DNA from: Candidatus Dormiibacterota bacterium
GTDB taxonomy: Bacteria; Chloroflexota; Dormibacteria; Aeolococcales; Aeolococcaceae
Reading direction: 5' to 3'
DNA length: 64,000 nt
Assembly: GCA_036561525.1 (NCBI GenBank)
Contig: DATBPD010000023.1
Span: forward strand, 58,930 to 122,929
Under the pieces are notes generated by a model. The model was given only the letters and a program-made list of their open reading frames with translations. It was not told where the DNA came from and made no database searches. This document shows, in pieces, positions 13,116 to 55,680 of this stretch (within the stretch, counting starts at the first letter, position 1; every line of letters starts with the position of its first letter). Position numbers and translations under genes: made by a program.

Positions 13116-13430
13116 CGCGGAACCTTACGACCACGCCGTCAATTTCGAGGCACCGATCCGGTGGACTTTCGTGACTACCTCAAGGAGAGGTGCCGCGCCC
13201 GCGGTATCTCACTCCACCGTCTGGCGCTGCTCTGCGACCTCAACCAGATCTATTTCTACCAGGCGGTGAACAAGAACAAGGAGAACCCACCGCCGTGGGT
13301 GCTGCGCCGCGCCGCGCCCCACCTCGGCGTCTCCTACGTTGAGCTGATGATCGCCGCCGGATATCTCCGCGACGAGGACCTGCGCGAATGGACCAGGGGC
13401 ACCTCGGTGGCGGCAGCGCCGGCGAGCTGA
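13083..13430 (+). CDS. XRE-family helix-turn-helix transcriptional regulator (small)
   Basis: The product has an HTH-like segment LKERCRARGISLHRLALLCDLNQIYFYQAVN. The start is ambiguous between TTG 13083 and GTG 13161. It lies immediately upstream of dinB. Confidence 0.55.
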   Translation: MSGPSRVPVYTRGTLRPRRQFRGTDPVDFRDYLKERCRARGISLHRLALLCDLNQIYFYQAVNKNKENPPPWVLRRAAPHLGVSYVELMIAAGYLRDEDLREWTRGTSVAAAPAS

Positions 13431-13485
13431 CCGGGCAGTTCGCGCGAGGCATCGGGACCGCTCACGCGCCACCGATACTTCATCC

Positions 13486-15084: not shown

Positions 15085-15362
15085 TCCGTGACGTGACGGA
15101 CTTGATCGTCAGGGAGTTGCGCCTGCGCCCGTTCAGCGACGCCGCCACCGCGCCGGCTCATCCACGCGAGCGGGGCGCGGCCGCCGTAACTCCGGACGCG
15201 AGGCTTGATGCCGAGCCCCTCAGCCGACTGTCGGCGCGGCACTCACTTCGACGTGTCGTCGACGAGCACGAGCTCTGAACGGGGTTTGTCCGCTGCCGGT
15301 CCGCAGCCCACGACTAGGTTCTGCAGCATGCTGCTCATCGCCGCGCCCACAGATGCGGTGCG

Positions 15363-17003: not shown

Positions 17004-19645
17004 GCGCTGGGGGCGGGGCCATCCGCGTTCCGCTCGCCGTCGATGCGCAGTTCCGCCTCCCGGTCGGGCCGATGCTGCTCCCCGTCCGTTCGCTGGTGCT
17101 GGCGGCTCTGGCCGGCCCGCTCGCCTACGGGCTGCTCGCGATCGGGCTGCCCGGGCTGTGGGGTGCAGCGGGCGCCGGCTTCGTGCTGGCTTTGGCCGCC
17201 TCGCTCGGCTTGCCCGAGCGGCAGGGTGTGTGGCTCGGGACCCACGTCGCCTATCGCCACGCCTGGCGCATCATGCCCTCCACGGTCAGCCGCGGCCAGG
17301 CAGCACGCGCCCGTGTCCGTGCCCTGCGCGGCGCGGTTCACGTCACCGGCGAACGGCCGGCGGTCAGTCCGTCGAGGTGGGTTCCGCGCCGTCTCCGCAC
17401 CTTCCTGGTGGTGCCGGCGACCTCGACCGATGCAGCGGGAATACTGCGCCTGGACCCCGGTGGCGACCGCGCGGTGCTCATGCTCGAGGGCCCCGCTGTC
17501 AGTGTCGCAGGCGACGGGTACCTCGAATGGTGCCGCGCCGCGGTCCGCTGGATCGGGTCTCTGGACTGCCCGGCTCAGTTCATCACCCTGATGACCCACC
17601 ACGACGCCCGCCGCGTCGGCGAGGCCTTCGACCGTCGCGTCGCCGCCTGGCCGCGCACTCCGCTCTACGAGCTCGAGCGCGGGTTGGCAGGAACACTGGC
17701 GCAGACGACGCTCGGGCTGCGGCACTACGTGGTCCTTGCACCCGGTTCGGCGGGCGCCGACGGGGTGCCGCACCGCAGCACTCCATGGCGCGCCGGCGAT
17801 GCGCGCGACACCACGCACGACCAGGCTGATCGCGCTCTCCAGTCTGCGCTGCGGATGGCACCCGGCTTCGCCATCGAGGTTCGCGCGGCCGACCGCGACG
17901 ACATCGCTGCACTGCTGGCGCACACCGCGCTGGGGGCGTCGCGGGCGATGGTGGGGGAGGATGTGCTGCGGGTCGGCGACCGCCATCATGTCGTGCTGAC
18001 GACCACGCAGCTGCCCGCGATCATCGAGGTGGGGGCGGTCGTCGAAGCCATGACCCGGGCTCACGCCGTCGGAGTTGCCAGCCTGCATCTCCTGCCGGTC
18101 AGCACCGCCGTTGCCCAGAAGTACCTCCATCGTCGCTCGGCGATGCTCGACTACGTGCGCCGCCGGGGGGCTGATCCCGTGGAAGCCGAGGTGGCCCTGC
18201 AGGAGACCACCGACGTCGTGGCGGCTCTCGCACAGCGCGACATCGTTCCGTGGCGCGTCGCCCTCACCGTGTGCGTTGCGGACCGGGAGCGAGCCAGGAC
18301 GCTGGAGGCGGCGGAACGACTGGGTGCCATCCTGGCGGCGCACGGCTTCCGGACAACTGAGGTGACCGGGCCGGGCCTTCTGCCGGCGCTCGCGCTCTCG
18401 CCGGGATGCGCGCCGCTTGCACGCAGCCTGATCTTGACATCCGACTCTGTTGTTGCGCGGATGCTGCCATGTCTGGGCACGCCGTTCGCCGACGTGTCGG
18501 CACCGCTCCTCGGCATCAACGTGCTCAACGGAACACCGGCGTACTTCTCCATCTGGAGCCAGCCGAACCACAACCTCGTCGTGGTCGGCAGCTCGGGCGC
18601 CGGCAAGTCGATGGCGGCCAAGACGTTGCTGCTCCGCCACGTGATGGAGGGCGTCGCGGCGGTGGTCATCGACCCCGACTCCGAGTACGGCGCGGTGATG
18701 CATGCAGTCGGTGGGCGGTACCTCGACCTCGGCACCGAGGCGCTCAACTGTCTGGGCGTCGCCCCGGACGCGTCGGCCGACACCGCGGCGGGGCTGGTGC
18801 TGCCCATCCTCTCGGTCATGGCCGGCGATGACCGCGGAGTCCGCGAAGGCCGGCCAATACGCCGCCTTCCCGACGAGGACCAGGGCTGGCTGCACGGCGA
18901 GCTCGTCGACTTCTTCGCAGCACGGAAACGCGCCGGGGCAGCAGAGGCGCTGATGCGGGAACTCGTCGACTTTCTGCAGCGCACATCGTTGCCGCGCGCT
19001 CTCACCGACCGTGAGCGCGATCGATGTCGCGTCATCACCGCACGCTTGCGTCGCTTCACGCAGGGGATGCGCGCTGCGGTCTTCGACCGGCCGTCGACAT
19101 TCTCAGTCGACGCTGGCCCGATCGCGATCGGGCTCAAATCATTCGCGATGAACTATGGCGCGGACCTCACCCCGGCCTTGGCCGTTCTGCTCACGGCGAT
19201 CCTCGCGGCGCTCGGGAAACGGCGCGGCCGGATGATCGTGGTCGTCGACGAAGCCCACCGCATCACCTCCGACCCCGACGCCGGCGAGGTGCTCGGTCAG
19301 CTGGTGCGCCAGGCGCGCAAGCATGGCGCCGGTGTTTGGATGCTCTCCCAGCGCGTCGAGGACTTCGTGCGCACCGACCTCGGCCGCACGCTCGCCGCCA
19401 CCTCCGCGTCGAAGCTCGTCCTCGGCACCGAGGAGGCGGTGCTCGACGAGGTGCGCGAGGTCTTCAAGCTGCGCGGCGAGGAGCTGGCTGCGATCTGCCC
19501 GTCGAGCCCCGGGAGGGGGGTGCTGCTGGCCGGCGCTGAGCGGACTGTCGTTGACGTCGTGCCGGGACCGGCGATCATGGCGATTGCCGACACGCGTGCG
19601 ACGATGTCGCCTGCGCCGGCGGGTCGCAGCGCCAACGTGGCGTAG
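17000..19645 (+). CDS. VirB3-VirB4-like conjugation/T4SS ATPase (TraC/TrbE/ConE family)
   Basis: The 881-aa product has two N-terminal TM helices (VirB3-like), Walker A NLVVVGSSGAGKS, Walker B MIVVVDEAHR, and a size typical of VirB4. Confidence 0.6.
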   Translation: MSAGGGAIRVPLAVDAQFRLPVGPMLLPVRSLVLAALAGPLAYGLLAIGLPGLWGAAGAGFVLALAASLGLPERQGVWLGTHVAYRHAWRIMPSTVSRGQAARARVRALRGAVHVTGERPAVSPSRWVPRRLRTFLVVPATSTDAAGILRLDPGGDRAVLMLEGPAVSVAGDGYLEWCRAAVRWIGSLDCPAQFITLMTHHDARRVGEAFDRRVAAWPRTPLYELERGLAGTLAQTTLGLRHYVVLAPGSAGADGVPHRSTPWRAGDARDTTHDQADRALQSALRMAPGFAIEVRAADRDDIAALLAHTALGASRAMVGEDVLRVGDRHHVVLTTTQLPAIIEVGAVVEAMTRAHAVGVASLHLLPVSTAVAQKYLHRRSAMLDYVRRRGADPVEAEVALQETTDVVAALAQRDIVPWRVALTVCVADRERARTLEAAERLGAILAAHGFRTTEVTGPGLLPALALSPGCAPLARSLILTSDSVVARMLPCLGTPFADVSAPLLGINVLNGTPAYFSIWSQPNHNLVVVGSSGAGKSMAAKTLLLRHVMEGVAAVVIDPDSEYGAVMHAVGGRYLDLGTEALNCLGVAPDASADTAAGLVLPILSVMAGDDRGVREGRPIRRLPDEDQGWLHGELVDFFAARKRAGAAEALMRELVDFLQRTSLPRALTDRERDRCRVITARLRRFTQGMRAAVFDRPSTFSVDAGPIAIGLKSFAMNYGADLTPALAVLLTAILAALGKRRGRMIVVVDEAHRITSDPDAGEVLGQLVRQARKHGAGVWMLSQRVEDFVRTDLGRTLAATSASKLVLGTEEAVLDEVREVFKLRGEELAAICPSSPGRGVLLAGAERTVVDVVPGPAIMAIADTRATMSPAPAGRSANVA

Positions 19646-20365
19646 ATGTCGGTCCCGGCGGTCGCCGCGCAGCTGCTGGCGGCACGCAGCATCCGCAAAT
19701 GGGTCGGCTGTGGCTGCCTGGTGGCCATCGCCGTCGTCGCGCTGCCGCTGTTCATGGTCTTCTCGCTGGTGAGTGGTCTCGTCTCCGGCATCACCGGCGG
19801 CGCGGCCGGCGGCAGCCAGGCCGACGGCTTCACACTCGGCGGCGCCGCCCTCGTCTCGGCCAGCGGCGAGCCGCTGCAGCCCCACACGTTCGCTGTGAGC
19901 CAGGGGTTCGGATGCACCGGCGTCGCCGTCGAAGGCCGGCCACCGGCTCCATACAGCTGCCCCCCCGACGCAGCTCACCCGACTGACCAGCGCTTCCACA
20001 CGGGCATCGACCTCGCCGCCGCTTACGGTAGCCCGGTCTTCGCGGTTGCGGCGGGCATCGTCCACGTCGTCGAGTCCTCCACCGGATTCGGCGTGCACAT
20101 CCTGCTCGCTCCGCCGGTGACCACCGGCAGGCCGGTGGTCTACCTGTACGGCCATCTGAGCGGCGTTGCCGTCGGTGACGGCGTCGCGGTCACTGCCGGC
20201 CAGCCGCTCGGGTCGGTCGGCAGCACCGGCAACAGCACTGGACCGCACCTTCACTTTGAGGTCGATGTCGGCGGTGTCCCGGTGAACCCGTGCTCGATCT
20301 TCCCCGCCGGGTACCTCGCCCCTGCGGGCGTGGCCGCCGCCGGTTGCCTGGCCTGGGCCATCTGA
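19646..20365 (+). CDS. M23 family metallopeptidase (LytM-type cell-wall hydrolase), membrane-anchored
   Basis: The product has an N-terminal TM anchor then HTGIDLAA and GSTGNSTGPHLHFEV zinc-ligand motifs. Its ATG directly abuts the VirB4-like stop (TAGATG). Confidence 0.85.
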   Translation: MSVPAVAAQLLAARSIRKWVGCGCLVAIAVVALPLFMVFSLVSGLVSGITGGAAGGSQADGFTLGGAALVSASGEPLQPHTFAVSQGFGCTGVAVEGRPPAPYSCPPDAAHPTDQRFHTGIDLAAAYGSPVFAVAAGIVHVVESSTGFGVHILLAPPVTTGRPVVYLYGHLSGVAVGDGVAVTAGQPLGSVGSTGNSTGPHLHFEVDVGGVPVNPCSIFPAGYLAPAGVAAAGCLAWAI

Positions 20366-37766: not shown

Positions 37767-39794
37767 TCAGGGCCGCGACGGCGTCAGCTGCGCCGCGAGC
37801 TCAGGCGGATCGGTGACCGGCAGCTTGCACGCGAAGCTCTCGCAGACGTACGCGGCCGGTGCGCCGTCGACCAGAGGACGATCGGCCAGCAGCGCGATAC
37901 CGTCCGCTTCACCCCAGGCCAGGACCGCGTCTGGCATCCAGGTGCCGTGCACCGCGCGCACCAGTGCGTGCGTCCTGGCATCCTCGCGGTCGCCGCTGAT
38001 CGCGATCTCGCGTGACGGCGCCACGGCGCGGTCGCTGACACACGCCATCGAGCTCACCCCCAGGGGTGAGCGGGCGACCAGCGACGCCATCGAGCCGATG
38101 ATCTCCAGCGCTCGCGAGCGCAGCGGGGCGTCGCCCCTGAGCGCGGCGAGGCGGAGCAACGCGGACGCCAGCGCCGACTGCCCCGCGGGGACCGGGTTGT
38201 CGTCGATGGTACGCGGTCGCACCACCAGTGCCGGTGCGTCAGAGGCGGTGTCGTAGAGGACGCCGCCATCGCTGAATCGGAGCAGCGCGTCGTCGACAAG
38301 AAGGCCGGCGGACTCCAGGTAGGTTGCCTCGCCGATCGCCTCGTACAGCGTGATCAGGGCGTCGGCGAGGTAGGCGGAGTCCTCCAGGAAGCCGGTGATC
38401 TTGGCGCTGCCGTCCTTCCACGTCCGCAGGAGCACGCCATCAGGTCGCAGCGCGCTCAGCAGGAAGTCCGCGTTGCGTTGGGCTGCTTGGATGTACGCCG
38501 GTCGTTCGAGAGCAGCACCTGCCTCGGCGAGCGCAGCCAGCATCAGGGCATTCCATGAGGTCAGCACCTTGTCGTCGCGGGCCGGCGCCGCGCGCTGCCG
38601 CCGAGCGGCGAAGAGATGCTGCCTGATTCGGTCGAGGGTGCTCTGCAGGTCCGCCTCGGTGAGGCCGAGGCTGTGGGCCACCTCGTCGATCGGGTACGGC
38701 ATCGACAGCACCGTGCTGCCGTTCTCGACGTTGCCAGCTTCGGTCACCCCGAAGAGTCGTGCGGCGAGGGCGCCTTTCTCCGGGCCGAGGACCTCGCCCA
38801 GCTGCTGCGGCGTCCACACGAAGTACGACCCCTCGCCGCCTGGCGAGTCGGCGTCCTGTGATGAGGCGAAACCACCACCGGGGAGGGCCAGCTCGGCGAG
38901 CACATAGTCGAGGGTCTGCTCGACCACGCGTCGCCAGCGCATCTCGCCGGTCAACTGATAGGCGTGCAGATAGACCGGGACCAGCTGTGCGTTGTCGTAG
39001 AGCATCTTCTCGAAGTGCGGCACCGACCAGGTCGTGTCGACGGTGTAGCGGTGAAAGCCACCGCCGATCTGGTCGTTGATGCCCCCCCGCGACATCCGAT
39101 CGAGTGCCAGCGCGACGACCCCGAGCGAGTCGCGGTCGCCCGTGGCGCGATGGCGCCGCAGCAGGAGGTCGAGCGCAGCTGGATGAGGAAACTTGGGAGC
39201 GCCACCGAAGCCGCCGTTGTGCGGGTCAGCCTGTGAGAGCAGGAGAGCTGTCGCCGCTTCGAGGCTCGTCGTCGAAGGAGCCCCTGCCGCCAGCGCCGGC
39301 GGTTCGAGAACCTGGCGCAGCCGGTCGGCGGCAGCGCTCACCTCGTCGCGGCGGTCGCGGTACACCTCGGCGGCGGCATTGAGCACGTAGGCAAAGCCGC
39401 GCATACCCTGCCGGTCCTCTGGTGGGAAGTACGTGCCGCCGAAATACGGTTCACCGAGGGGCGTCAGGAACACCGTCATCGGCCACCCGCCATGGCCGCT
39501 GATGGCGAGGACCGCCTGCATGTAGATCGAGTCGACATCGGGGCGCTCCTCGCGGTCCACCTTGATGTTGACGAAGAGCTCATTCATCAAGGCGGCGATG
39601 CGCTCGTTCTCAAAGGATTCGTGGGCCATGACGTGGCACCAATGGCAGGCGCTGTAGCCGATGCTGAGGAGCACGGGGCGGTCGCGGTCGCGAGCTTGCG
39701 CGAACGCCTCGTCGCCCCACGGGTACCAGTCCACAGGGTTCTCGGCATGCTGGAGGAGGTACGGGCTGGTTTCGGCGGCGAGGCGGTTGCTCAC
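37767..39794 (-). CDS. thioredoxin-domain protein (YyaL/DUF255, N-acylglucosamine epimerase-like)
   Basis: The product has [20 protein letters not shown] at its N-terminus and a roughly 675-aa alpha/alpha-toroid body. Confidence 0.85.
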
Positions 39795-39899
39795 CCGGCG
39801 ACGCTACCAGACGGCCTCCATCCGTCCGCGGTGAGTTGTCCCCAAACCGACGAACGCGTGTGACAGTTGCAACAAACCAACCCGAACCGGAGACCGACG

Positions 39900-40382
39900 A
39901 TGACCGAAACCACCGGCGCCAACCCAGGCGCGCACCGCGAGATCTTCCACCACGTCCCCCATCCGCGCATCGGTCAGCGTCAGCACGAGGGGCCGGCCAC
40001 GACGACCGCCGTCCAGGAGCGGCTCGGGTTCAATGGAAAGGTCGGCGTCCTCATCACCACCGTGGTGGGCACGATGTGGGCCGCATACATCTTCACCATC
40101 CTGGCGCTCATCAGCCTGCCCGGAGCCATCTCGAGCGGGAACACGGTGATCATCGTCGGCTGGATTGCGCAGACCTTCCTGCAGCTGGTTCTGTTGCCGA
40201 TCATCATCGTCGGTCAGAACGTGCAGTCCGCGGCCGCCGACAAGCGCTCGCAGCAGACCTACAGCGACGCCGAGGCGATCCTCGCCGAATGCCTGCAGCT
40301 CCAGGCCCACCTCCAGGCCCAGGACAAGGTGCTCGATGACCTGGTCACCCGCCTGGAGAAGGTCGCGCCACCCCGAGCGTGA
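39900..40382 (+). CDS. DUF1003-family membrane protein
   Basis: GGAG lies 8 nt upstream of the ATG. The product has two TM helices (GWIAQTFLQLVLLPIIIVGQN) and a C-terminal coiled coil. Confidence 0.65.
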   Translation: MTETTGANPGAHREIFHHVPHPRIGQRQHEGPATTTAVQERLGFNGKVGVLITTVVGTMWAAYIFTILALISLPGAISSGNTVIIVGWIAQTFLQLVLLPIIIVGQNVQSAAADKRSQQTYSDAEAILAECLQLQAHLQAQDKVLDDLVTRLEKVAPPRA

Positions 40383-40478
40383 GCTCGGGAGGCCCACGCC
40401 CCGGGATGGACGCTCGACGCTACGCCACCACCGATCCACCGGGACCGGCGACCGATGGCGGGTCCTTGATCGCGGCGA

Positions 40479-40928
40479 TCAGCCGGGCACAGCCACCTGC
40501 TGTCGACGCCGCGACTTGCCGCCGTCGCCGGCGCCTCCAGCGTCGCCGGGCTCGACGGCCACGGCCGCCTCCTCGTCGCCGCTCCTGGGCGCATGGTCGT
40601 CGGTCTGCGGCCGGTCGAGCAGCTTCATTGTCTCGGCGACGATCTCCGTGGTGTGCCGCCGCAGTCCGTCACTGCCGTCGTACTCTCGCGTGCGCAGCCG
40701 CCCCTCGATGTACACGCGCCGTCCCTCGACGCAGTAGCTGGCGCATATCTCCGCCAGCTTGCCGAAGGCGACCACGTGGTGGAACTCGGCGTGCTCCTGA
40801 CGGTTGCCCTCCGCGTCGCGCCACACCGAGTTGGTGGCGATGCGCATTCGGGTCAAGGTCGTGCTCGGCCCGGTTGTCGGCTCAGCGTCCCGGGTGAGAT
40901 TGCCTACAAGGATGACTCGGTTGATCAT
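40479..40928 (-). CDS. ssb: single-stranded DNA-binding protein
   Basis: The product has an OB-fold MINRVILVGNLTRDAEP and an acidic/Gly-rich tail. It is not in an rpsF-rpsR context. Confidence 0.85.
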   Translation of the reverse strand: MINRVILVGNLTRDAEPTTGPSTTLTRMRIATNSVWRDAEGNRQEHAEFHHVVAFGKLAEICASYCVEGRRVYIEGRLRTREYDGSDGLRRHTTEIVAETMKLLDRPQTDDHAPRSGDEEAAVAVEPGDAGGAGDGGKSRRRQQVAVPG

Positions 40929-40979
40929 TGCCAGGGTGCCTCCGTCTGGGTTGGTTGAGACTGGTCGTGTGGTCGGCTG

Positions 40980-41933
40980 TCAGGCGGGTTTGCGGGGCGC
41001 ATGCGACGCGTGGTGGGTCGGCAACAGCGCGCGTTTCGCGGATCGCTCGAGGGTGTGCAACATCGTGTGTGCCTTGCTCTCCAGGTGCGCGGACGTGTTC
41101 ATCGCGCCCGGTACCTTGAGCAGCAACCACAGCGTCGCCAGCGCGTACACGGTGCTGATCAACCCGCCGCTCGAGTCGAACTCGGTGGTGACCGCCACGC
41201 GCAGGATGATCAGCTGCACGGCCTGCATGAACACAGTCCCAAGGAACAGCCGCAGCCACGAGCGGGCGTGACTTCGCGTATCGGGAATGACGCTGAGCAG
41301 AGCCGCAAGCGGGGCGGTGACGATCAATACGTTGAGCAGCGCGGTGCGGATCACATATGCGAGGACCAGGATGGCCATGGCAGCGACGAGGGCTAACGCC
41401 ATCACACCCTGGAACAGGTCCTGGCCGGTGACCAGACCGGCGATGATCTGCGGCGACAGGCTCGCCGACCAGGGCAGGTTGTCGCCGTTCAACGGTCCCC
41501 CGAGAGACAGCGCCACGCTGCCCATCGCGTTGTTGAGGTCGACCGCCATCTGCATGAAAAGCAGCGAGCCATGCGCCAGCACGACCGCGAGGAGGATCCG
41601 CGGGATGATCACCTTGAGGTCGTATCGCGACCGCATGGTGTGCTCGAAGATGCTCCGCAACGACGTGAACAGGATCACCAGCGCGATCAGCACGTCGACG
41701 GCCACAGTGAGCCCGAGGTTGAGCTTGGCGAGATTGGGATTGCCGGTGATCGGTCGGTTGCCCGCGACAGTGGGGTCGACGGTGCGGAACAGGAAGCGGT
41801 CGAGCACACCCATCATGTCGACGCGCGCGACGGAGATGAAGTGGCCGAGCAGCCCGGTGATCGACTGAAGCAGGAACCCGATCGGGTCGGTCACGGCATG
41901 TCCGACGCCGGTGATGCCGTTGATGAGCCCCAC
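40980..41933 (-). CDS. VirB6/TrbL-like polytopic membrane protein (second copy)
   Basis: The product has 6 or more TM helices (VIIPRILLAVVLAHGSLLF, VMALALVAAMAILVLAYVI). A GTG start immediately follows the mini-pilin stop. Confidence 0.45.
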   Translation of the reverse strand: MGLINGITGVGHAVTDPIGFLLQSITGLLGHFISVARVDMMGVLDRFLFRTVDPTVAGNRPITGNPNLAKLNLGLTVAVDVLIALVILFTSLRSIFEHTMRSRYDLKVIIPRILLAVVLAHGSLLFMQMAVDLNNAMGSVALSLGGPLNGDNLPWSASLSPQIIAGLVTGQDLFQGVMALALVAAMAILVLAYVIRTALLNVLIVTAPLAALLSVIPDTRSHARSWLRLFLGTVFMQAVQLIILRVAVTTEFDSSGGLISTVYALATLWLLLKVPGAMNTSAHLESKAHTMLHTLERSAKRALLPTHHASHAPRKPA

Positions 41934-41934
41934 G

Positions 41935-42174
41935 TCAGTGCACGCCGCCGGGGATGCTGGAGATGATCGCGTGGGTGAGTGTCCCGGCCACCTCGACGCC
42001 GATGGTGCCGAAGACGATGCGCCCGATCCAGCGCTTTGCCTCCATGACGCTGCGCGGGTCGACCGCGACGATCTTGTACATGAACGCAACCAGGAAGGCC
42101 AGGGCGCCGATTGAGCCGATCAGACCCTGCGCGAGCAGGATCCAGTTGTCGACGAGACCCTTCAGCTCCGACAT
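41935..42174 (-). CDS. VirB2/TrbC-like mini-pilin (79 aa, two TM helices)
   Basis: GGAGG lies 6 nt upstream of the ATG. The product is MSELKGLVDNWILLAQGLIGSIGALAFLVAFMYKIV... Confidence 0.4.
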   Translation of the reverse strand: MSELKGLVDNWILLAQGLIGSIGALAFLVAFMYKIVAVDPRSVMEAKRWIGRIVFGTIGVEVAGTLTHAIISSIPGGVH

Positions 42175-42245
42175 GGGCGACCTCCGACACGCGATGGCGG
42201 TCGCCCCTCCGGCCGGCCGGTCCAGCGACCGGCTCGCTCCGCAGT

Positions 42246-42276
42246 CTACCTACACAGGATTGTGTATGTCAAGGCG
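42246..42276 (-). promoter_or_regulatory. conserved dyad-containing motif, copy 1 (minus-strand GCCTTGACATACACAATCCTGTGTAGGT), 88 nt upstream of the mini-pilin ATG
   Basis: Contains a TTGACA -35-like hexamer and an inverted repeat TACACA/TGTGTA. Its core TGACATACACAA(A)TC is identical to the copy at 45324-45354. Confidence 0.4.
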
Positions 42277-42811
42277 GGATGCGAGAGCAAAGGCCGATCG
42301 CAAAGGTTTCCACGGATCCACCGCCGATGGCAAGTGCCAGATCGTCCGTCGTCAGCCCGCCGGCCGCCTTGCGCCTGAAGTCGGGGAGATAGTCGCGCGT
42401 CAACCAAAAGCTGTCCACGAACCGAATGTCCCATTGGAACAGCACCACTCGCGAGCGGGCGACGCGGCGCATCTCCCGAAGTCCGGCGAGACGGTCCGTC
42501 CAGTGGTGGTCCGACAGCACTGCCATGGATGCGTCGAATGCCCCGTCAGCGAATGGCAGCTTCTCGGCTCTGGCCTGCAACACCGGCGCGGAGCCCGGTC
42601 GACGCTGCGCGATCATCACCGACGATGGTTCGACCGCTGTGACGTCACGATCGGCAGGCTCATACGACCCCGTGCCAGCGCCGACATTGATCACCGTGCG
42701 AGCGTTACCCAGTTCTCGGTGAATCGCTACAGCCAGCCGCGGGTCTTCGCTGCGACCGATGCCATATCCCTTTCCGATCCGGTCGTACAGGGCGCGGTCA
42801 TGCTCGGTCAC
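42269..42811 (-). CDS. class I SAM-dependent methyltransferase
   Basis: The product has the SAM motif VINVGAGTGS and a downstream LPFADGAFD. Confidence 0.75.
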   Translation of the reverse strand: MTEHDRALYDRIGKGYGIGRSEDPRLAVAIHRELGNARTVINVGAGTGSYEPADRDVTAVEPSSVMIAQRRPGSAPVLQARAEKLPFADGAFDASMAVLSDHHWTDRLAGLREMRRVARSRVVLFQWDIRFVDSFWLTRDYLPDFRRKAAGGLTTDDLALAIGGGSVETFAIGLCSRIPP

Positions 42812-42832
42812 CGATGCTCCGCTGACCCTTGC

Positions 42833-43474
42833 CTACGCGCCGAACATGGCACGACACCCATCCAGTCCGAGCAGCTCGATGTCACCACGCCGTCCAGCTC
42901 TCCAGCCGTCCCGGGTGAGGCGGAGGGAGATATGACGGTCAGCCACGTCCCGTCGCAGCCGGAGGTCAGAGCCGTTGTCCTCGTACCCCAGCTTGCGAGA
43001 CACGGCCAACGAAGGCCGATTGTCGTGCCAGGCGCCGCTGTGGGCTTCGGCAGCTCCCAGCCCCGCAAAGGCCAGGTGGAGCACGGCCGCGCGCATCTCT
43101 TGGCCGATGCCCAGCCCCTGGAACGCACGTCCCAGCCAGGAACCGGTCCCGACCGAGCGCAGCGTGGCGACGTCCCGTGCTGCGAGGTCCTGGACGCCGA
43201 CGGGGATCCCATCCACAAGGACAGCGCCCGCGAAGGTCCAGTCCTTCGGACTCCACGCTGCGCGTTGATGCCACCACCACTGGAGCGCTGAGCGCTCGAG
43301 ATCGGGCGACGAGGCGTCGGTCCAGGGAATGGCGAACGGCATGTCTTCGGGGTCGTGAATCCCGGCGGAGGCGAGCCGGACAAGCTCGACCAGGATGTCG
43401 TCGCTGGGAAGACGGATCTCCAGCCGCGGAGTCCGAATGACCAGGTCGAACAGCGGCCAGTACGGATTGGGCAC
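42833..43474 (-). CDS. GNAT-family N-acetyltransferase (RimL-like)
   Basis: The product has an acetyl-CoA-binding segment RAFQGLGIGQEMRAAVLHLAF. Confidence 0.75.
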   Translation of the reverse strand: MPNPYWPLFDLVIRTPRLEIRLPSDDILVELVRLASAGIHDPEDMPFAIPWTDASSPDLERSALQWWWHQRAAWSPKDWTFAGAVLVDGIPVGVQDLAARDVATLRSVGTGSWLGRAFQGLGIGQEMRAAVLHLAFAGLGAAEAHSGAWHDNRPSLAVSRKLGYEDNGSDLRLRRDVADRHISLRLTRDGWRAGRRGDIELLGLDGCRAMFGA

Positions 43475-43589
43475 CCGCGAATTATCGGCTGCGGAGGTTG
43501 CGCGCGAGCCCGGTCCCGCTGGGGGGTGTCAGGCCACCCCGGCCCACGCGGGACCGGGATGGCCTGATCGGCGTTAGGTTTGCCTGCCC

Positions 43590-45209
43590 CTACTTGAACG
43601 TGGCGACCGACGCCACCCATACATGGCCGACGGTCGCGCCGAAGTGGAACGTGCCCGTCGCGCTCGTGATTTGGTAACCGCCCACCTCGTTGAGGCCGCT
43701 GTTGGTCGCGTTGGCGGTGGTGGGGGTGATCGTCCAGCCCGCCGTCGGACTGGTCGGGCTACCAGAGGTCGCCCAGCCAATGCCGCCGATGGCGATCTCG
43801 TTCGCCTGCGACGTCGTCGCCGTCGGGCCGCTATCAGCCGGCACTGTCCCCAGACCGGTTGCAGTCGCGGTCTGATCCACAAGAGTGGTTGCGCCGCTGA
43901 ACTCATAGAAACGGACGATGATGCCGCTGCTGGCCCCGTCGGTTGCGGTGACGGAGGTCACTCCAGCGGCTGCGTTGGAGGAGTACCAGATCTCTCCCGA
44001 CATCATCACGCTGGCGGGGTCTTGCGCGATCGCCTTGTGCCAGGTGTTGCCCTGGTTGTCGGTGATGGCGGTGACCGCCGTCGAGGGAGTCGCGGTGGTC
44101 CTCATGATGACATCGGCCACAAGCAGGTTGTGGGCCCCTGTCGCAGCAATACCGCTGAGTGTGAAGGTGGTTCCGGCGACGGTGTTGCCGCCCGCGACAG
44201 TTTGTTGGAATGCAAGCGGCGGCGCCCCTGTCGCTGAGGCCAGCGACACCCAGGTGCTGTCGTTGTTCACGGCGACCAGGTCCGCCCGGCCGTCGTTGCT
44301 GACGTCGCCGAGCAGAGTCGCCTTGGAGCCGAAGAATGGAGTCGACGACCACACCTCCGGAGCTCCGAATGCCGTACCGGAGGACGGCATCACCCGTGTG
44401 CCGCCGCTGTCGACCGCGACCAGGTCCGCGCTGCCGTCGCTGTTGACGTCACCCAGCAGGGTCGCCTTGCTGCCGAAGAACGGGGTGGACGACCACTTCG
44501 CGGGGGCCCCGAACGACGTCCCGCTGGAGGCCATCACCCAGGTGCTGTCGCCGTTCACCGCGACAAGATCGGCCCGGGCGTCGCCGGTGACATCGCCGAT
44601 CCTGGTCGCCTTGCTGCCGTAGAAGGGGCTCGACGACCACTTCGCTGGGGCTCCGAAACCGGACGACCCGTTGGACAGCTCCACCCAGGTGCTGTCCTTG
44701 TTCACCGCGACCAGGTCCGCGCTGCCGTCGTGGTTGATGTCGCCCACCAGGGTCAGCTCGCCGCCGAAGAAGAGGCCCGACGACCACCTCGTGGGAGCGC
44801 CGAAGGACGAGCCGGAGGACAGCATCACCCAGGTGCTGTCCTTGTTGACCGCGACCAGGTCTGCCCGGCCGTCGCCGTTGACATCGGCAAGAAGTGTCGC
44901 CTCGCCACCGTAGAACGGAACCGACGACCACTTCGTCGGAGCAGCGAAGGACGTCCCGTTGGACGCCATCACCCATGTGCTGTCGCTGTTCACCGCGACA
45001 ACGTCTGCCGCGCCGCTGGCGGCGGTGACCCGGCCCACCAGGGTCGCATGGGTGCCGAAGAAGGGGCTCGCAGACCACTTCGTCGGAGCTCCGAAGGAAC
45101 CGCTGGCCGCCGTGTTGGGATGGTTCGCCGCAATGGAACCCCGGGCCGGCAGAGTCAGGCCAACAAGGATCGCGAACGCCGCTGCGGTGAGGATGGTCTT
45201 CTGGCGCAC
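43590..45209 (-). CDS. secreted FG-GAP/VCBS-like repeat protein with unknown C-terminal domain
   Basis: GTG start at 45209 has GGAGGA 5 nt upstream. The product has a signal peptide RQKTILTAAAFAILVGLTLPA and seven repeats of roughly 43 aa with consensus ADLVAVNxDSTWVMxSxGxSFGAPxKWSSxPFYGSKATLLGDVNGDG. Confidence 0.7.
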   Translation of the reverse strand: MRQKTILTAAAFAILVGLTLPARGSIAANHPNTAASGSFGAPTKWSASPFFGTHATLVGRVTAASGAADVVAVNSDSTWVMASNGTSFAAPTKWSSVPFYGGEATLLADVNGDGRADLVAVNKDSTWVMLSSGSSFGAPTRWSSGLFFGGELTLVGDINHDGSADLVAVNKDSTWVELSNGSSGFGAPAKWSSSPFYGSKATRIGDVTGDARADLVAVNGDSTWVMASSGTSFGAPAKWSSTPFFGSKATLLGDVNSDGSADLVAVDSGGTRVMPSSGTAFGAPEVWSSTPFFGSKATLLGDVSNDGRADLVAVNNDSTWVSLASATGAPPLAFQQTVAGGNTVAGTTFTLSGIAATGAHNLLVADVIMRTTATPSTAVTAITDNQGNTWHKAIAQDPASVMMSGEIWYSSNAAAGVTSVTATDGASSGIIVRFYEFSGATTLVDQTATATGLGTVPADSGPTATTSQANEIAIGGIGWATSGSPTSPTAGWTITPTTANATNSGLNEVGGYQITSATGTFHFGATVGHVWVASVATFK

Positions 45210-45323
45210 GCTGCTCCTCCACGTGTCATCGGCTTGATCGTGCTCGCCGAATAGCAAGCACACGAGGTCCGGCGACGCTACCAGACTTGCCATGCCTGCG
45301 TCAGCATTTCGTGTCTGCAGATG

Positions 45324-45354
45324 AAGACGACACTGATTTGTGTATGTCAGGGCG
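45324..45354 (-). promoter_or_regulatory. conserved dyad-containing motif, copy 2 (minus-strand GCCCTGACATACACAAATCAGTGTCGTC), about 133 nt upstream of the FG-GAP gene
   Basis: Matches copy 1 at 15 of the 16 central plus-strand nt (TTGTGTATGTCARGGC). It has an ACAC...GTGT inverted repeat. Confidence 0.4.
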
Positions 45355-45589
45355 CTATCACTGTTCGCCACCGTGCCCAATGGTGCAATTCGTGCTCGCA
45401 ATCGTCAGCGCCGCAATCAGCCGGTCGCGGCCGGCTCAGCTCCGGGCGCCGTGGACGGCCGGTGGACGGATCGGCTGCTCGCTCTCCTCGACGAGCCTCG
45501 ATCACCCCGTCGACATTGTCCTGGCGCCCGTTGTGGTCATATCGCTGCGCGTGTTCGGCAACGGTGGCCGCCGATTGCATACTCGCGCG

Positions 45590-47215
45590 GTGGGTTTCAT
45601 CGATGTTGCCAACCTCAGGTACGTGCTCGGCGCCGGGCGCGTCCTCTTCGAAGATGTCTCCTTCCGCGTGGCGGACGGGTCGAACACCGCGCTGATCGGC
45701 GCCAACGGAACTGGCAAGACGACGCTGTTGCGGATCGTCGCCGGCGACCTGGCGCCGACGGGCGGCGCCATCTCCAGTCGTGGGGGCGTTGGGGTCATGC
45801 GTCAGTTCATCGGTTCGATCCGCGATCGCAGCACCGTCAGAGATCTCCTCGTCGCGGTAGCGCCGTCGGCGATGCGCCTCGCCAGGCGCGCCCTCGACGA
45901 GGCGGAACGCGGCCTGTCGGAGAGTGGCAGTAACGAGGCGGCCATCGCGCACGGGCAGGCGATCGCGGATTGGAGCGAGGTCGGCGGCTTCGATGCCGAA
46001 TTGGTGTGGAACCTCTGCACACAGGCAGCCCTGCACGAGTCGTACGACGATTCATGCGACCGTCTGGTGGCGGAGCTCAGTGGTGGCGAGCAGAAGCGAC
46101 TGGCGCTCGAGGCCCTGTTGCGGGGTCGACAGGAGGTGCTGCTGCTCGACGAGCCGGACAATTACCTTGACGTCCCGGGCAAGCAGTGGCTCGAGGAGGC
46201 GTTGCGGCTCACCCGCAAGACGGTGCTGTTCGTCACCCACGACCGTGAACTGCTCGCGCGCACGGCGGACCGCGCGATCACCCTGGAGGGCGGCACCGCG
46301 TGGACGCACGGCGGCAGCTTCGGCGCGTATGCGGACGCGCGGCGAGCCAGGCACGAGCGCCAGGCGGAGGTGCGCCGCCGCTGGGACGAGGAGCGCGAGC
46401 GGCTGACTACCTACGTGCGAACCCTCCAGCAGCAGGCGGCGCGCAGTGCCGACATGGCCTCGCGCTACCGAGCTGCCCAAACCCGGCTGGCTCGGTACGA
46501 GGCGGAGGGTGCGCCGCCCGATCGGCCGCGGGAGCAGAACGTGCGCATCAAGCTGATCGGGTCGCAAACCGGGGTCCGCGTCCTGATGTGCGACCGACTG
46601 GAGCTCACGGACGTGATGCAGCCCTTTGACCTGGAGCTGTTCTTCGGCGAACGGATCGCCGTTCTGGGAGCTAATGGCACGGGGAAGTCACACTTCCTGC
46701 GCCTTCTCGGCGGCGACGACATCGCATTCGGCGGACGATGGCGACTGGGGGCGCGGGTCGTGCCCGGCAGCTTCTCGCAGCTTCATCAGCGCGCCGACCT
46801 CGAAGGTCGCGTGCTCGTGGACGTGCTCCATGACCACCGGCTCGACCGCGGACAGGCAATCGGTGCCCTGCGTCGCTATGAGCTGGGCGCGCAGGCGGAC
46901 CAGTCCTTCGCAACGCTGTCCGGAGGTCAGCAGGCGCGGCTCCAGATCCTGCTGCTGGAACTCGGCGGCGCCACCCTCCTTCTGCTCGATGAGCCCACTG
47001 ACAACCTTGACATCGACAGCGCGCAGGCACTCGAAGACGGCCTTGCTGGTTTCGAGGGGACGGTGATCGCCGTCACTCACGACCGCTGGTTCGCGCGATC
47101 CTTCGACAGGTTCCTGGTGTTCGGGTCAGACGGAGTCGTGCGGGAGTCGGGCGAACCCGTCTGGGAGCCTGCCCGCCGTGCACAACCGGCGCATCAGGAT
47201 GCGGGTCGACACTGA
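45590..47215 (+). CDS. ABC-F family ATPase (tandem ABC domains, no TMD; translation factor or ARE-type)
   Basis: The product has two Walker A motifs (GANGTGKTTLL and GANGTGKSHFL), two LSGG signatures, and an interdomain linker of about 70 aa. The start is GTG 45590 or TTG 45575. Confidence 0.8.
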   Translation: MGFIDVANLRYVLGAGRVLFEDVSFRVADGSNTALIGANGTGKTTLLRIVAGDLAPTGGAISSRGGVGVMRQFIGSIRDRSTVRDLLVAVAPSAMRLARRALDEAERGLSESGSNEAAIAHGQAIADWSEVGGFDAELVWNLCTQAALHESYDDSCDRLVAELSGGEQKRLALEALLRGRQEVLLLDEPDNYLDVPGKQWLEEALRLTRKTVLFVTHDRELLARTADRAITLEGGTAWTHGGSFGAYADARRARHERQAEVRRRWDEERERLTTYVRTLQQQAARSADMASRYRAAQTRLARYEAEGAPPDRPREQNVRIKLIGSQTGVRVLMCDRLELTDVMQPFDLELFFGERIAVLGANGTGKSHFLRLLGGDDIAFGGRWRLGARVVPGSFSQLHQRADLEGRVLVDVLHDHRLDRGQAIGALRRYELGAQADQSFATLSGGQQARLQILLLELGGATLLLLDEPTDNLDIDSAQALEDGLAGFEGTVIAVTHDRWFARSFDRFLVFGSDGVVRESGEPVWEPARRAQPAHQDAGRH

Positions 47216-47221
47216 GGAGCA

Positions 47222-47782
47222 GTGATGCCCAACGGAGAGACGCCGGAGGTGAGGATCGAGCCCTGGGCGGAGGGCGATCTTGACCTGCTGCGCGAAACCA
47301 ACAGCAGGGAGATGAAGGAACACCTGGGCGGCCCGGAGACCGAGGAACAGATCGTGGCACGCCACCAGCGCTATCTCGCCACCGGCGGGTCGGGCACGGG
47401 GCGCATGTTCAGCATCGTGCTGCTCCCTGAGCGCCGCGGAGTCGGCACCATCGGCTACTGGGAACGCGTGTGGAAACAGGACGCTGTCTACGAGACGGGT
47501 TGGAGTGTTCTGCGCCGCTTTCAGGGTAGAGGCATCGCGGCCGCGGCGACTGAGGCGGTCGTCTCCGCGGCCAGGGCGGAGACGAAGCACAGATACATCC
47601 ATGCCTTCCCGTCCGTCGACAACCCCGCGTCGAACGCGATCTGTCGAAAGCTCAACTTCACATTGCTCGAAGAGTGCGACTTCGAGTTCCCGCCGGGCCA
47701 CCTGATGCGCTGCAACAATTGGCGCCTGGACCTCACTGCCGGTGGGGACCCGGACAACGCCAGCGGTGGCACCGTCCGCTGA
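47222..47782 (+). CDS. GNAT-family N-acetyltransferase
   Basis: The product has RRFQGRGIAAAATEAVV and lies 7 nt after the ABC-F stop. Confidence 0.7.
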   Translation: MMPNGETPEVRIEPWAEGDLDLLRETNSREMKEHLGGPETEEQIVARHQRYLATGGSGTGRMFSIVLLPERRGVGTIGYWERVWKQDAVYETGWSVLRRFQGRGIAAAATEAVVSAARAETKHRYIHAFPSVDNPASNAICRKLNFTLLEECDFEFPPGHLMRCNNWRLDLTAGGDPDNASGGTVR

Positions 47783-47895
47783 AGTCTCGCGCCTCGAGGC
47801 CCAGCCCACTCTCGAGGAGGGTGGTGACAACCGATCACACAAAATGCGTTGCAACCGTCCGGCATCGGGTACCGTCTGCCCATGCCGACTGAGCG

Positions 47896-49512
47896 ATGTC
47901 GCCGGCCGACGTGAGTTCGCGAAGACTGAAGCTTCATCGACCCGTGGCGCGTGCGGTCTGTGCGGTCCTCGCCGTCGCCACCGCGGTGGCGACCGGCGGC
48001 CTGGCCACGCCGTCGCACGCCAGCGCGGCGGGCTACGCCAGCATCCGCGTCAACCCTGTGCGTCAAAAGTACGGGCTCGATTGCGAGGCCGCGGCGCTGC
48101 AGATCGCTCTGAGCGCGATCGGCATCAACGTCAGCCAGGACTGGCTCCTGCAGCGGTTCGGTGTCGATCCCCGGCTCCCGGCGATGAGCGGGGGCCGCCC
48201 GGTGCGGTGGGGAGATCCGTACGAGTCTTTCGTCGGAGATGTGCGTGGTGCCTGGTTGAGGACTGGATACGGCGTCTACTACCCGCCGATTGCCGCGGCG
48301 GCGCAGGTTGCCGGGGCCGGCGCGGTCGGACATGAAGCGTGGTCCCCCTCCCAGCTCTACAACGAGGTGGCCCTGGGTCACCCGGTCGTGGTTCGCGTGT
48401 CACACCTGCTCAACCCCGTCTCGGTGGGCCATTGGACGGCCTGGGATGGCCGCAACGTGTGGTACTCGCCGCAGGACCACGCGCAGGTGCTGTCCGGGTT
48501 CAACTACGCGGCGGGGACGGTGACCCTGGCTGACCCGAGCGACGGCCAGATGCACACCGTCTCGATGTCGCTCTTCGAGTATCGATTTGCTCAGTTCATG
48601 GGCTCGGCGGTGGTCATCACACCCCCGGGCATACACCTCGCACCGCTCCAGACAACAGGGCAGGCCAGCTCTGCGATCGCCGTTGCCAGCGGCACCATCT
48701 GGGCTCTGTCGCCGGGCGCCGGCTCGTTCGGCAGCAACCACCAGTGGTCCTCGGTCCCGTTCTACGGCACGCGCGCCACCACCTTCGCCGACCTCGACGG
48801 CCCCGGCAAGCCCGCTTCGGCGGTGGCCATCAACGAGGCCTCCGTCTGGGTCATGAAGAACAACAACGGCAGCTTCGGCTACCCCACACCGTGGTCAAGC
48901 GTCCCGTTCTACGGTTCACGAGCCACGCTGATGGCAGATGTCGACGGAAGCGGTTTCGCTGCCGCGGTGGCGATCAACGACAACAGCGTCTGGGTGATGC
49001 GCGTCAACTCCGCGAGGGATGGCTTCGGGGCGCCGCAGCTGTGGTCAAGCTCGTTCTTCTACGGCAACCGCGCCACCGTCATGGCCGATGTCGACGGCAG
49101 CGGCCGGGCGTCCCCCGTCGCCGTCAACGACGACAGCATCTGGGTGTTGCCGAACCACGGGGGCGCATCCTTCGACCCGCCGCAATCGCGATCAAGCTCG
49201 CTCTTCTACGGCAGCCGCGGCACCTTCATGGCCGACCTCGACGGACCCGGCAAACCGGCCTCGGCCGTGGCCATGAACGACAGCAGCATCTGGGTGGAGA
49301 AGAACAACGGTGCGGGCAGCTTCACGGCGCCGGTGCCCTGGTCCAGCGGGCCCTTCTACGCCAACTCGCAGTACCTGGCCGATCTCGACGGCAGTGGACG
49401 CGCCTCGGCCATCGCGGTCAGCAGCACAGCCATCTGGGTCGAGCAGAACACCGGGTCCGGCTTCGGGCCTCCCACCAGGTGGTTCGACGGCGCCTTCTAC
49501 GGAACCCACTAG
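47896..49512 (+). CDS. secreted protein: N-terminal peptidase C39-like (papain-fold) domain plus FG-GAP-like repeats
   Basis: The product has a signal peptide, then YGLDCEAAALQIALSAIG (Cys of a C39-like domain), then 6 or more repeats paralogous to those in the 43590-45209 protein. Confidence 0.65.
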   Translation: MSPADVSSRRLKLHRPVARAVCAVLAVATAVATGGLATPSHASAAGYASIRVNPVRQKYGLDCEAAALQIALSAIGINVSQDWLLQRFGVDPRLPAMSGGRPVRWGDPYESFVGDVRGAWLRTGYGVYYPPIAAAAQVAGAGAVGHEAWSPSQLYNEVALGHPVVVRVSHLLNPVSVGHWTAWDGRNVWYSPQDHAQVLSGFNYAAGTVTLADPSDGQMHTVSMSLFEYRFAQFMGSAVVITPPGIHLAPLQTTGQASSAIAVASGTIWALSPGAGSFGSNHQWSSVPFYGTRATTFADLDGPGKPASAVAINEASVWVMKNNNGSFGYPTPWSSVPFYGSRATLMADVDGSGFAAAVAINDNSVWVMRVNSARDGFGAPQLWSSSFFYGNRATVMADVDGSGRASPVAVNDDSIWVLPNHGGASFDPPQSRSSSLFYGSRGTFMADLDGPGKPASAVAMNDSSIWVEKNNGAGSFTAPVPWSSGPFYANSQYLADLDGSGRASAIAVSSTAIWVEQNTGSGFGPPTRWFDGAFYGTH

Positions 49513-55163: not shown

Positions 55164-55526
55164 TCAACGGCCCGGCTCCAGCTGGTGGATCAGGTCGTCG
55201 AGATGGCCGCGAAGCGCCGCCTCGAGCTGCTGGATCAGCGCATACAGCCCGATCGCCGTGTCGCGGGTGTCGCCGTTCAACTGCCGAAGCGCTCCCGGAA
55301 GGATCGGAATGCCACCCGGCGGGCCTGGCGCCGGCGACGGGGATGGCCCCGCGACGGCGGCGCTCGGGATGGCAGCGGCCGGAGCCGCCGACGGTGCGGT
55401 ACTGGCGACCGGCCACGTCGCCGGCTGCACCACGACGCTGCCCGGATGGGCGAGGAGGTGAACGCCTCCCCACGCGATCAGCACGATCGTGACGGGGAGG
55501 AGGATTCGCGCTGAGATCAGTCGCAT
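55164..55526 (-). CDS. small secreted/anchored hypothetical protein (120 aa), Pro/Ala-rich
   Basis: GGTGGAG lies 8 nt upstream of the ATG. The product is MRLISARILLPVTIVLIAWGGVHLLA... and GC3 is high. Confidence 0.45.
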   Translation of the reverse strand: MRLISARILLPVTIVLIAWGGVHLLAHPGSVVVQPATWPVASTAPSAAPAAAIPSAAVAGPSPSPAPGPPGGIPILPGALRQLNGDTRDTAIGLYALIQQLEAALRGHLDDLIHQLEPGR

Positions 55527-55680
55527 GGCACGCTCCACCCTGGCGCGCGCCGCCCCTCCGCCGCGGTGTCGGTCCCGGCGCCACCAGCATACACAGATCG
55601 GTGGTGGTTGGGCAAGCTGGTCCCAGGCAGCTGGCGGCGCGGCAGCGCGCCCATCGGGAGCTCTGTGCAAGCCTGTAGGC

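Follow-up and report, generated by a model that had tools for sequence, protein, structure and literature searches.

The closest described systems to the locus reported here are sigma70 promoters that carry the operator of a dimeric repressor between the -35 and the -10 and are shut off by occlusion, as in control of the LexA or TetR type. Another known element, the NrdR box, is a 16-bp palindrome (acaCwAtATaTwGtgt) that occurs as tandem pairs upstream of the ribonucleotide reductase (nrd) genes. The Dormibacterota are abundant in cold, nutrient-poor soils and are essentially uncultured, and our search of the literature returned no description of Dormibacterota promoters, regulators or type IV secretion genes. 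Here, we analyze a stretch of 64,000 nucleotides from a Candidatus Dormiibacterota bacterium (assembly GCA_036561525.1, contig DATBPD010000023.1, positions 58,930 to 122,929; hereafter the window, whose own coordinates are used throughout) and, within it, a promoter with an operator-like palindrome in its spacer, located upstream of a small operon for a pilin-like protein, a TrbL/VirB6-like membrane protein and a single-stranded DNA-binding protein (SSB). Two published systems provide further comparisons. Operators of the CopY/CopR and BlaI type are given as TACAnnTGTA (PMC7253601), and Patescibacteria, which are described as sister to Chloroflexota and Dormibacterota, encode on their chromosomes type IV secretion systems that lack a relaxase and have VirB2-like pilins (PMC12102498); the latter study covers neither Dormibacterota nor any promoter or operator.

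A previous reading of the window from its letters alone (the sequence-only reading) noticed a 16-nt motif with an internal dyad in two places, upstream of the mini-pilin gene (copy 1) and upstream of a gene for an FG-GAP repeat protein (copy 2), and proposed a shared promoter/operator and a regulon that links the pilin/VirB6/ssb unit with the FG-GAP protein. The explanation that we consider best, and that we hold with moderate confidence as a whole, is that copy 1 is a conserved sigma70-type promoter that drives the mini-pilin/TrbL/SSB operon and contains a candidate operator, that the partner in the regulon is a gene for a secreted protein of 119 amino acids (aa), here called SP119, and that copy 2 is a relic.

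The mini-pilin promoter and the palindrome in its spacer

On the plus strand the two copies read TTGTGTATGTCAAGGC (copy 1, 42260-42275) and TTGTGTATGTCAGGGC (copy 2, 45338-45353) and are identical at 15 of 16 positions, as reported previously, with the second coordinate corrected by 1 nt (from 45339-45354). Both are minus-strand elements upstream of a minus-strand gene: copy 1 lies 98 nt before the ATG of the pilin gene (42174), and copy 2 lies 140 nt before the GTG of the FG-GAP gene (45209), which has a GGAGGA ribosome-binding site. The ungapped match widens to 21 of 25 nt (42252-42276 versus 45330-45354), and a comparison of the flanks of both upstream regions showed no similarity beyond these 25 nt. 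The pair stands out from the sequence around it. The exact 12-mer TGACATACACAA occurs in only two places in the 64 kb, which are the two motif copies, and first-order Markov simulations gave an expectation of 0.03 per window for repeated 12-mers with at least 8 A/T, against one observed. The G+C content of the window is about 70%. When up to 3 mismatches were allowed, only 1 of 100 shuffles contained the 16-mer twice, and with up to 1 mismatch tolerated the dyad TACAC-N6-GTGTA matches in the window only at copies 1 and 2. Two weaker sites were also proposed, upstream of the second FG-GAP gene (47825-47856) and of the DUF1003 gene (39861-39878). Neither is within 3 mismatches of the 16 positions and both score below 13 bits in the weight scan described below; they are at chance level.

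In gene orientation copy 1 reads TTGACA-TACACAATCCTGTGTAGG-TAGACT, a core promoter (42243-42272, minus strand) with the -35 hexamer TTGACA at 42272-42267, a spacer of 18 nt and the -10 hexamer TAGACT at 42248-42243. The 16-nt motif noticed before corresponds to the -35 and the left half of the spacer and palindrome. The promoter is the single sigma70-type match in the 8.7 kb from 39500 to 48200 (10 of 12 positions; 0.6 matches expected). The stop codon (TGA) of the methyltransferase gene upstream (42269-42811, minus strand) sits inside the -35 hexamer of copy 1, so that the promoter begins within the last codons of that gene.

We gathered orthologous loci (L numbers below) via the TrbL protein and by a pattern scan in which each species was represented by one genome; L001 to L004 and L024 are population variants so close to the window that they are uninformative for comparison. 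Among the 12 close-clade genomes, homology starts exactly at TTGACA and continues through the spacer, the -10 and a leader of about 80 nt to the start codon, and in every one of them the sequence upstream of TTGACA is unrelated and the upstream gene is a different one. About 16 Dormibacterota genomes retain both hexamers 18 nt apart, including ones in which TrbL is only 52 to 69% identical. The distant orthologues read TTGACG-18-TAGTCT (L007), TTGCCA-18-TAGTCT (L009) and TTGACA-18-TAGTCT (L010). The pattern scan of 185,579 species returned 10 matches, 8 of which are in Dormibacterota, and all 8 of these are pilin promoters, one per genome save for one duplication. Because the matches are mostly Dormibacterota pilin promoters, the promoter element is specific to this lineage and not a dispersed repeat, and with 10 matches in all it does not show the hundreds of sites that a dispersed repeat or the end of an insertion sequence would leave. 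The suggestion that the TTGACA-like -35 and the inverted repeat form a promoter/operator is therefore upheld for copy 1, which is a conserved promoter with an operator-like dyad.

The dyad lies inside the spacer and is a perfect 5+5 palindrome of 16 bp, TACAC-AATCCT-GTGTA (42251-42266; no strand assigned). Throughout the close clade ATACACAA and GTGTAG are unchanged. The arms are invariant in the 12 close genomes, while the 4 central nucleotides come in 8 forms (TCCT, ACCC, ACCA, ATCA, ATCC, TTCC, GTCT and ACTA). In an alignment of 13 sequences that includes the distant orthologues, TACAC and the GT six bases on are invariant columns. In distant genomes the element moves by 3 to 4 nt relative to the -35, yet stays intact; L007 and L009 read CTACA-N6-TGTAG. 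Moreover, the palindrome is found at more than one promoter per genome, before the pilin gene and before the 119-aa gene, in 6 genomes and then in 2 held-out genomes. From this pattern we infer the footprint expected of a dimeric DNA-binding protein. The palindrome would be an operator, and its position between the -35 and the -10 suggests a repressor, which would most likely act by blocking RNA polymerase. No candidate regulator gene was consistently linked to the palindrome in the loci examined. An extended -10 (TGn) was also considered as the cause of the conserved right arm, and its register does not fit.

Could the spacer be conserved on its own account? One could imagine that there is no separate regulator, that the spacer is intrinsic to a strong promoter through contacts with sigma and RNA polymerase, and that copy 2 is a chance match or a neutral remnant. 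In its favor, a metagenome scan for non-canonical copies (with GTGTB as the pattern end, so that pilin promoters were excluded), which missed the source population too, gave no further copies of the FG-GAP type and only two unrelated AT-rich contigs that match the same 20-mer and resemble ordinary promoters; L021, for instance, has TTGACA and TATAAT separated by 17 nt. This explanation also draws on the high conservation of the whole block including the leader, since low divergence inflates the apparent constraint. However, the central 4 nt vary freely where the arms never change, the element is palindromic, it slides by a few nucleotides against the -35 in distant genomes without being broken up, and it recurs at the SP119 promoter, whose -35 hexamer differs; pure chance for the repeat is about 0.03. 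We regard a purely intrinsic role of the spacer as very improbable.

The favored promoter-operator is followed by a 5' leader (42175-42242, minus strand) that is conserved in sequence together with the promoter. It contains the box CGGAGGGGCGAC at 42200-42211 and two GC-rich hairpins. The consensus structure calculated with RNAalifold has both hairpins, the second of which (GGGGCGACC/GGTCGCCC) directly adjoins the Shine-Dalgarno sequence and extends up to the start codon. In this consensus 93.5% of the cells are paired versus 18 to 56% in slid controls, and 5 pairs are changed on both sides. No Rfam covariance model matched between 39500 and 48200 at an E-value of 1 or lower. The predicted leader structure is plausible but unproven.

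SP119 as the probable second unit

A search with the leader core GGCCGGAGGGGCGACCG turned up a second copy in each of L009 and L010, immediately in front of a gene for a protein of about 120 aa; between the pilin and SP119 leaders, GGCCGGAGGGGCGACCG is identical in L009 and differs by one mismatch in L010. In the window this gene lies on the minus strand at 55167-55526. It was recognized by tblastn orthology across genomes and is absent from the sequence-only reading. SP119 carries a signal peptide, has no Pfam match and is not assigned to a family; among its 99 homologues, every source name given is Dormibacterota.

The organization upstream of the SP119 gene resembles that of the pilin operon. 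Its promoter (55586-55615, minus strand) has TTGCCC at 55615-55610, a spacer of 18 nt and TATGCT at 55591-55586 and reads TTGCCC-AACCACCACCGATCTGTG-TATGCT; an operator-like site, CACCACCGATCTGTGTAT (55606-55589), abuts the -10. The leader (55527-55585, minus strand) contains the box CGGAGGGGCGGC at 55549-55560, and exact matches to CGGAGGGGCGRC are present only in the SP119 leader and the pilin leader. Orthologues of SP119 are encoded in L005, L006, L007, L009 and L010 as well as in the window, and all are preceded by the palindrome abutting the -10. The leader box CGGAGGGGCG, which is related to the box of the pilin leader, is present before the SP119 gene in all 6 genomes.

We trained an 18-bp weight matrix on the pilin promoters and the SP119 promoters and left copy 2 out of the training. 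Scanning the 64-kb window gave only three sites above 13.1 bits, namely the pilin promoter (27.8), copy 2 (25.2) and the SP119 promoter (21.1 and 23.2 on the two strands), and Markov nulls reach 16.6 bits. About 158 kb of related loci contained no further sites. Two SP119 loci that had been held out, L029 and L030, have the site at the expected place (19.9 and 16.9 bits), and these 20-kb loci contain no other site of at least 14 bits except one pilin promoter. The data suggest that a small regulon probably exists and that in it the pilin operon is likely co-regulated with SP119 rather than with the FG-GAP gene.

Copy 2 and the FG-GAP gene

Copy 2, CGCCCTGACATACACAAATCAGTGT (45330-45354, minus strand), reads CGCC-CTGACA-TACACAAATCAGTGT-cgtcttcat. 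It consists of a -35-like CTGACA and TACAC-N6-GTGTc and has neither a -10 nor a leader. The sigma70 scan did not report it: CTTCAT stands 18 nt after the -35-like hexamer, and no hexamer with A2 and T6 follows at 16 to 18 nt. Copy 2 retains 9 of the 10 palindrome-arm positions and agrees with the pilin promoters of L013, L014 and L015 in 20 of 22 nt, including the non-palindromic -35 part, and the match ends just before the -10. About 35 bp downstream, between copy 2 and the FG-GAP gene, lies a promoter-like block of the gene's own (45275-45304, minus strand) with CTGACG at 45304-45299, 18 nt, TAGCGT at 45280-45275 and TGG before the -10. Only one full-length orthologue of the FG-GAP protein was found (L023, 60% identity). 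Conservation between the window and L023 begins exactly at the -35-like hexamer of this cTGACG-18-TAGCGT block and runs to the start codon; the L023 locus has no motif at up to 3 mismatches, and the alignment shows a gap at the motif segment. Conservation in orthologous upstream regions, which had been suggested as a check of the motif, thus holds for every pilin orthologue examined and fails for the sole full-length FG-GAP orthologue. The closest relatives (TrbL 86 to 88% identical) have no copy 2 and no FG-GAP gene here and carry other accessory genes instead. At 11656-12561 of L023, in another Dormibacter genome, the FG-GAP orthologue adjoins a tyrosine integrase gene, a neighbor that would fit a mobile, cargo-type FG-GAP gene.

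If both copies were functional promoter/operator sites of one regulon, the FG-GAP gene would be co-regulated with the pilin/TrbL/SSB unit, as first proposed. Such a regulon would account for the nearly complete arms of copy 2 and its 25.2 bits under a matrix not trained on it, and for its place upstream of, and co-oriented with, the FG-GAP gene; its centre lies roughly 68 bp before the putative FG-GAP transcription start, where some activators bind. However, copy 2 is without an acceptable -10 or a leader, and at the two well-supported sites the element lies between the -35 and the -10 and not at about -68. In addition, the motif is missing from L023, where the promoter block shared with the window is a different one, as well as from the closest relatives, and the two weaker sites that would have enlarged such a regulon do not rise above background. 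The regulon joining the pilin/VirB6/ssb unit with the FG-GAP protein is therefore not borne out in its proposed form, and we consider it unlikely. Copy 2 could still bind the regulator; evidence that it controls the FG-GAP gene was not found.

Duplications in two other genomes offer a different origin for copy 2. In L019, which is from the same genome as L006, a block of about 180 bp that comprises the promoter, the leader and pilin codons 1 to 26 is duplicated near-identically 1.86 kb upstream (5681-5860 versus 7537-7716), and the two copies flank co-oriented cargo, namely a GNAT fragment, a kinase-like gene and a methyltransferase gene. L007 has a duplication of the same kind (8185-8370 versus 9657-9840) around an antitoxin/PIN pair. 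Both breakpoints are at the same pilin codon (26); about 40 nt past the junction are some 75% alike, and the cargo differs. The intact operon is retained downstream of the duplication in both cases. Neither insert has an inverted copy of the junction sequence at its far end or contains an integrase, and tblastn of the window cargo against the cargo of the L019 duplication gave no matches. In view of these fresher blocks flanking co-oriented cargo, the likeliest reading of copy 2 is a truncated pilin-promoter paralogue left over from a promoter-block duplication. The duplication would have accompanied the insertion of the co-oriented FG-GAP, GNAT and methyltransferase genes, and the outer copy would have decayed to 25 nt. 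This history is a reconstruction and not a demonstration.

The same duplications can be viewed in terms of site-specific recombination. Recombinase core sites consist of inverted arms around a short centre, which the arms around the 6-bp centre of the palindrome resemble; the palindrome could be an att-like core and the two copies the attL and attR sites of a 3.1-kb islet with the FG-GAP, GNAT and methyltransferase genes. The islet would explain why direct repeats flank accessory-type cargo of lower third-position GC, why the sequence upstream of TTGACA is different in every genome and why two other genomes have cargo-flanking duplications at the same place, and the integrase next to the FG-GAP gene in L023 would fit as well. 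Nevertheless, the palindrome stands before the SP119 gene in 8 genomes without any duplication or cargo there, the L019 and L007 blocks end at pilin codon 26 and not at the palindrome, no integrase is near either copy in the window, and the copies differ at 4 of 25 positions. Recombination at an att site thus appears improbable, and more so than a regulon that includes the FG-GAP gene.

Several observations weigh against the promoter-operator with SP119 as its partner and copy 2 as a relic. The dyad spacing varies: with half-sites of 6 nt, the arms stand N6 apart in the clade of the window and N4 apart in L007 and L009. The left arm is degenerate in promoters of the 119-aa gene (CACCAC, CCCTAC), and the conserved spacer could reflect contacts with RNA polymerase and not a separate factor. 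For the leader, the folding energy of the single sequence is no better than that of shuffles (z = -1.2). The duplication in the window is only 25 nt long and differs from copy 1 at 4 positions, and a near-intact palindrome at copy 2 would also be expected under selection for regulator binding. With respect to the size of the regulon, the weight-matrix scans of the related loci covered neighborhoods of 8 to 20 kb.

Gene content and comparison with known systems

Genes on the minus strand were called from third-position GC and Pfam. The first gene of the operon (41935-42174) encodes a two-helix protein of 79 aa that was taken from the open reading frame listing; it has no match in Pfam or NCBIfam, and mini-pilin is a putative label. 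Its amino-acid identity is 92 to 99% in genomes in which TrbL is 69 to 88% identical, and 75 to 82% in the two most distant genomes (TrbL, 52 to 57%). Constraint of this strength is unusual for a small membrane protein without family assignment. The second gene (40980-41933) encodes the TrbL/VirB6-like membrane protein TrbL_3 (Pfam TrbL_4/TrbL; PF19590 is precomputed on homologues), whose homologues have Dormibacterota as source names. The third (40479-40928) encodes SSB (Pfam SSB, E = 1.3e-29), and its synteny is kept in the close clade. In L009 and L010 an M23 peptidase gene directly follows TrbL.

The region between the two copies contains, next to the methyltransferase gene, a GNAT acetyltransferase gene (42833-43474) and the FG-GAP/VCBS repeat protein gene (43590-45209), whose product has a signal peptide; all are on the minus strand. 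Beyond it, the plus strand encodes an ABC-F ATPase, a second GNAT protein and a C39-peptidase/FG-GAP protein. Pfam agreed with the previous labels for TrbL, SSB, FG-GAP, C39+FG-GAP and, weakly, DUF1003, and gave none for the mini-pilin. The public annotation starts the ABC-F ATPase at the ATG at 45380, and the Pfam-supported ABC domain begins near the GTG at 45590; the discrepancy leaves space (plus strand, 45355-45590) for a possible leader of about 200 nt or an N-terminal extension adjoining copy 2. An exact 16-mer, GGCGACGCTACCAGAC (TGGTAGCGT on the minus strand, extended -10-like), occurs both in the promoter block of the FG-GAP gene (45271-45286) and at 39797-39812, where it ends 6 nt before the GTG of the thioredoxin-DsbH gene (37767-39794, minus strand; Pfam and third-position GC). 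The latter position suggests a leaderless transcript; the repeat of a GC-rich 16-mer is compatible with chance.

Further away, on the plus strand at 15318-20365, the window encodes a protein of 561 aa without known family, a VirB4/TraG-like P-loop ATPase of 950 aa and an M23 peptidase, the last two at 16.8 to 20.4 kb. They resemble additional components of a type-IV-secretion-like system with scattered genes. Upstream of this cluster (15.3 kb) we found neither the palindrome nor the leader box. The likeness to the Patescibacteria systems lies in the combination of a chromosomal small pilin-like gene with VirB6/TrbL and VirB4-like components in a Terrabacteria lineage (PMC12102498). Here, however, the genes are scattered, with one pilin gene in place of an array.

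The duplicated block in L019 and L007 can be compared with att-flanked islands, integrative elements that carry a replacement end for their target gene and thereby duplicate it: the block flanks co-oriented cargo, and an intact operon remains downstream. In contrast to such elements, the inserts contain no integrase, the duplicated part is the 5' end with the promoter, and the window keeps only 25 nt of the outer copy.

Why would a secretion operon and accessory cargo share a promoter block? A tentative idea, which we put forward as possible and would not yet rely on, is a phylum-specific module in which a repressor acting on TACAC-N6-GTGTA within the promoter spacer, together with a shared structured leader with CGGAGGGGCG, would co-control a chromosomal, relaxase-less apparatus of the type-IV-secretion kind (mini-pilin/TrbL/SSB) and SP119, and in which the same block would serve as a hotspot of insertion and duplication that places FG-GAP, GNAT and toxin-antitoxin genes behind a copy of the controlled promoter.

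The locus offers a comparatively validated housekeeping-type promoter of the Dormibacterota (TTGACA, 18 nt, TAGACT), along with a candidate operator that has a two-member regulon and a conserved leader. All three can anchor promoter models and help in interpreting metatranscriptomes and in identifying the regulator of the conserved pilin-like secretion unit. It also illustrates that an AT-rich repeat in GC-rich DNA can be the leftover of a promoter duplication and not a sign of co-regulation, which matters when regulons are inferred from single genomes.

Several known operators were compared with the palindrome. The NrdR box resembles it in the ACAC...GTGT outer arms and an A/T-containing centre and was rejected: the arms here are separated by N6 and not N8, the box is single, and the genes downstream are pilin-like/TrbL/SSB and secreted-protein genes. 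For TACAC/GTGTA, the operator literature that we searched yielded only CopY-type boxes of different spacing. The cop box (PMC7253601) has similar half-sites (TACA/TGTA), and it was set aside because the spacing is N6 in all copies here versus N2 there and no copper or beta-lactam genes are in the context. A LexA/SOS box is not favored either, as no site of at least 13.1 bits is located at the DinB-family polymerase gene (13351-14697), a weak test given that lexA and recA lie outside the window.

The best match remains the sigma70 promoter with the operator of a dimeric repressor. Common to it and this locus are the TTGACA-18-TAnnnT arrangement and a site that recurs at two transcription units, namely a palindrome of 16 bp whose 5-nt arms are conserved around a freely varying centre and which overlaps the -10 or lies directly against it. 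The difference is that the half-site TACAC/GTGTA matches no assignable operator. The element appears to be of a known kind, a housekeeping promoter with a putative embedded repressor operator, in a poorly known phylum.

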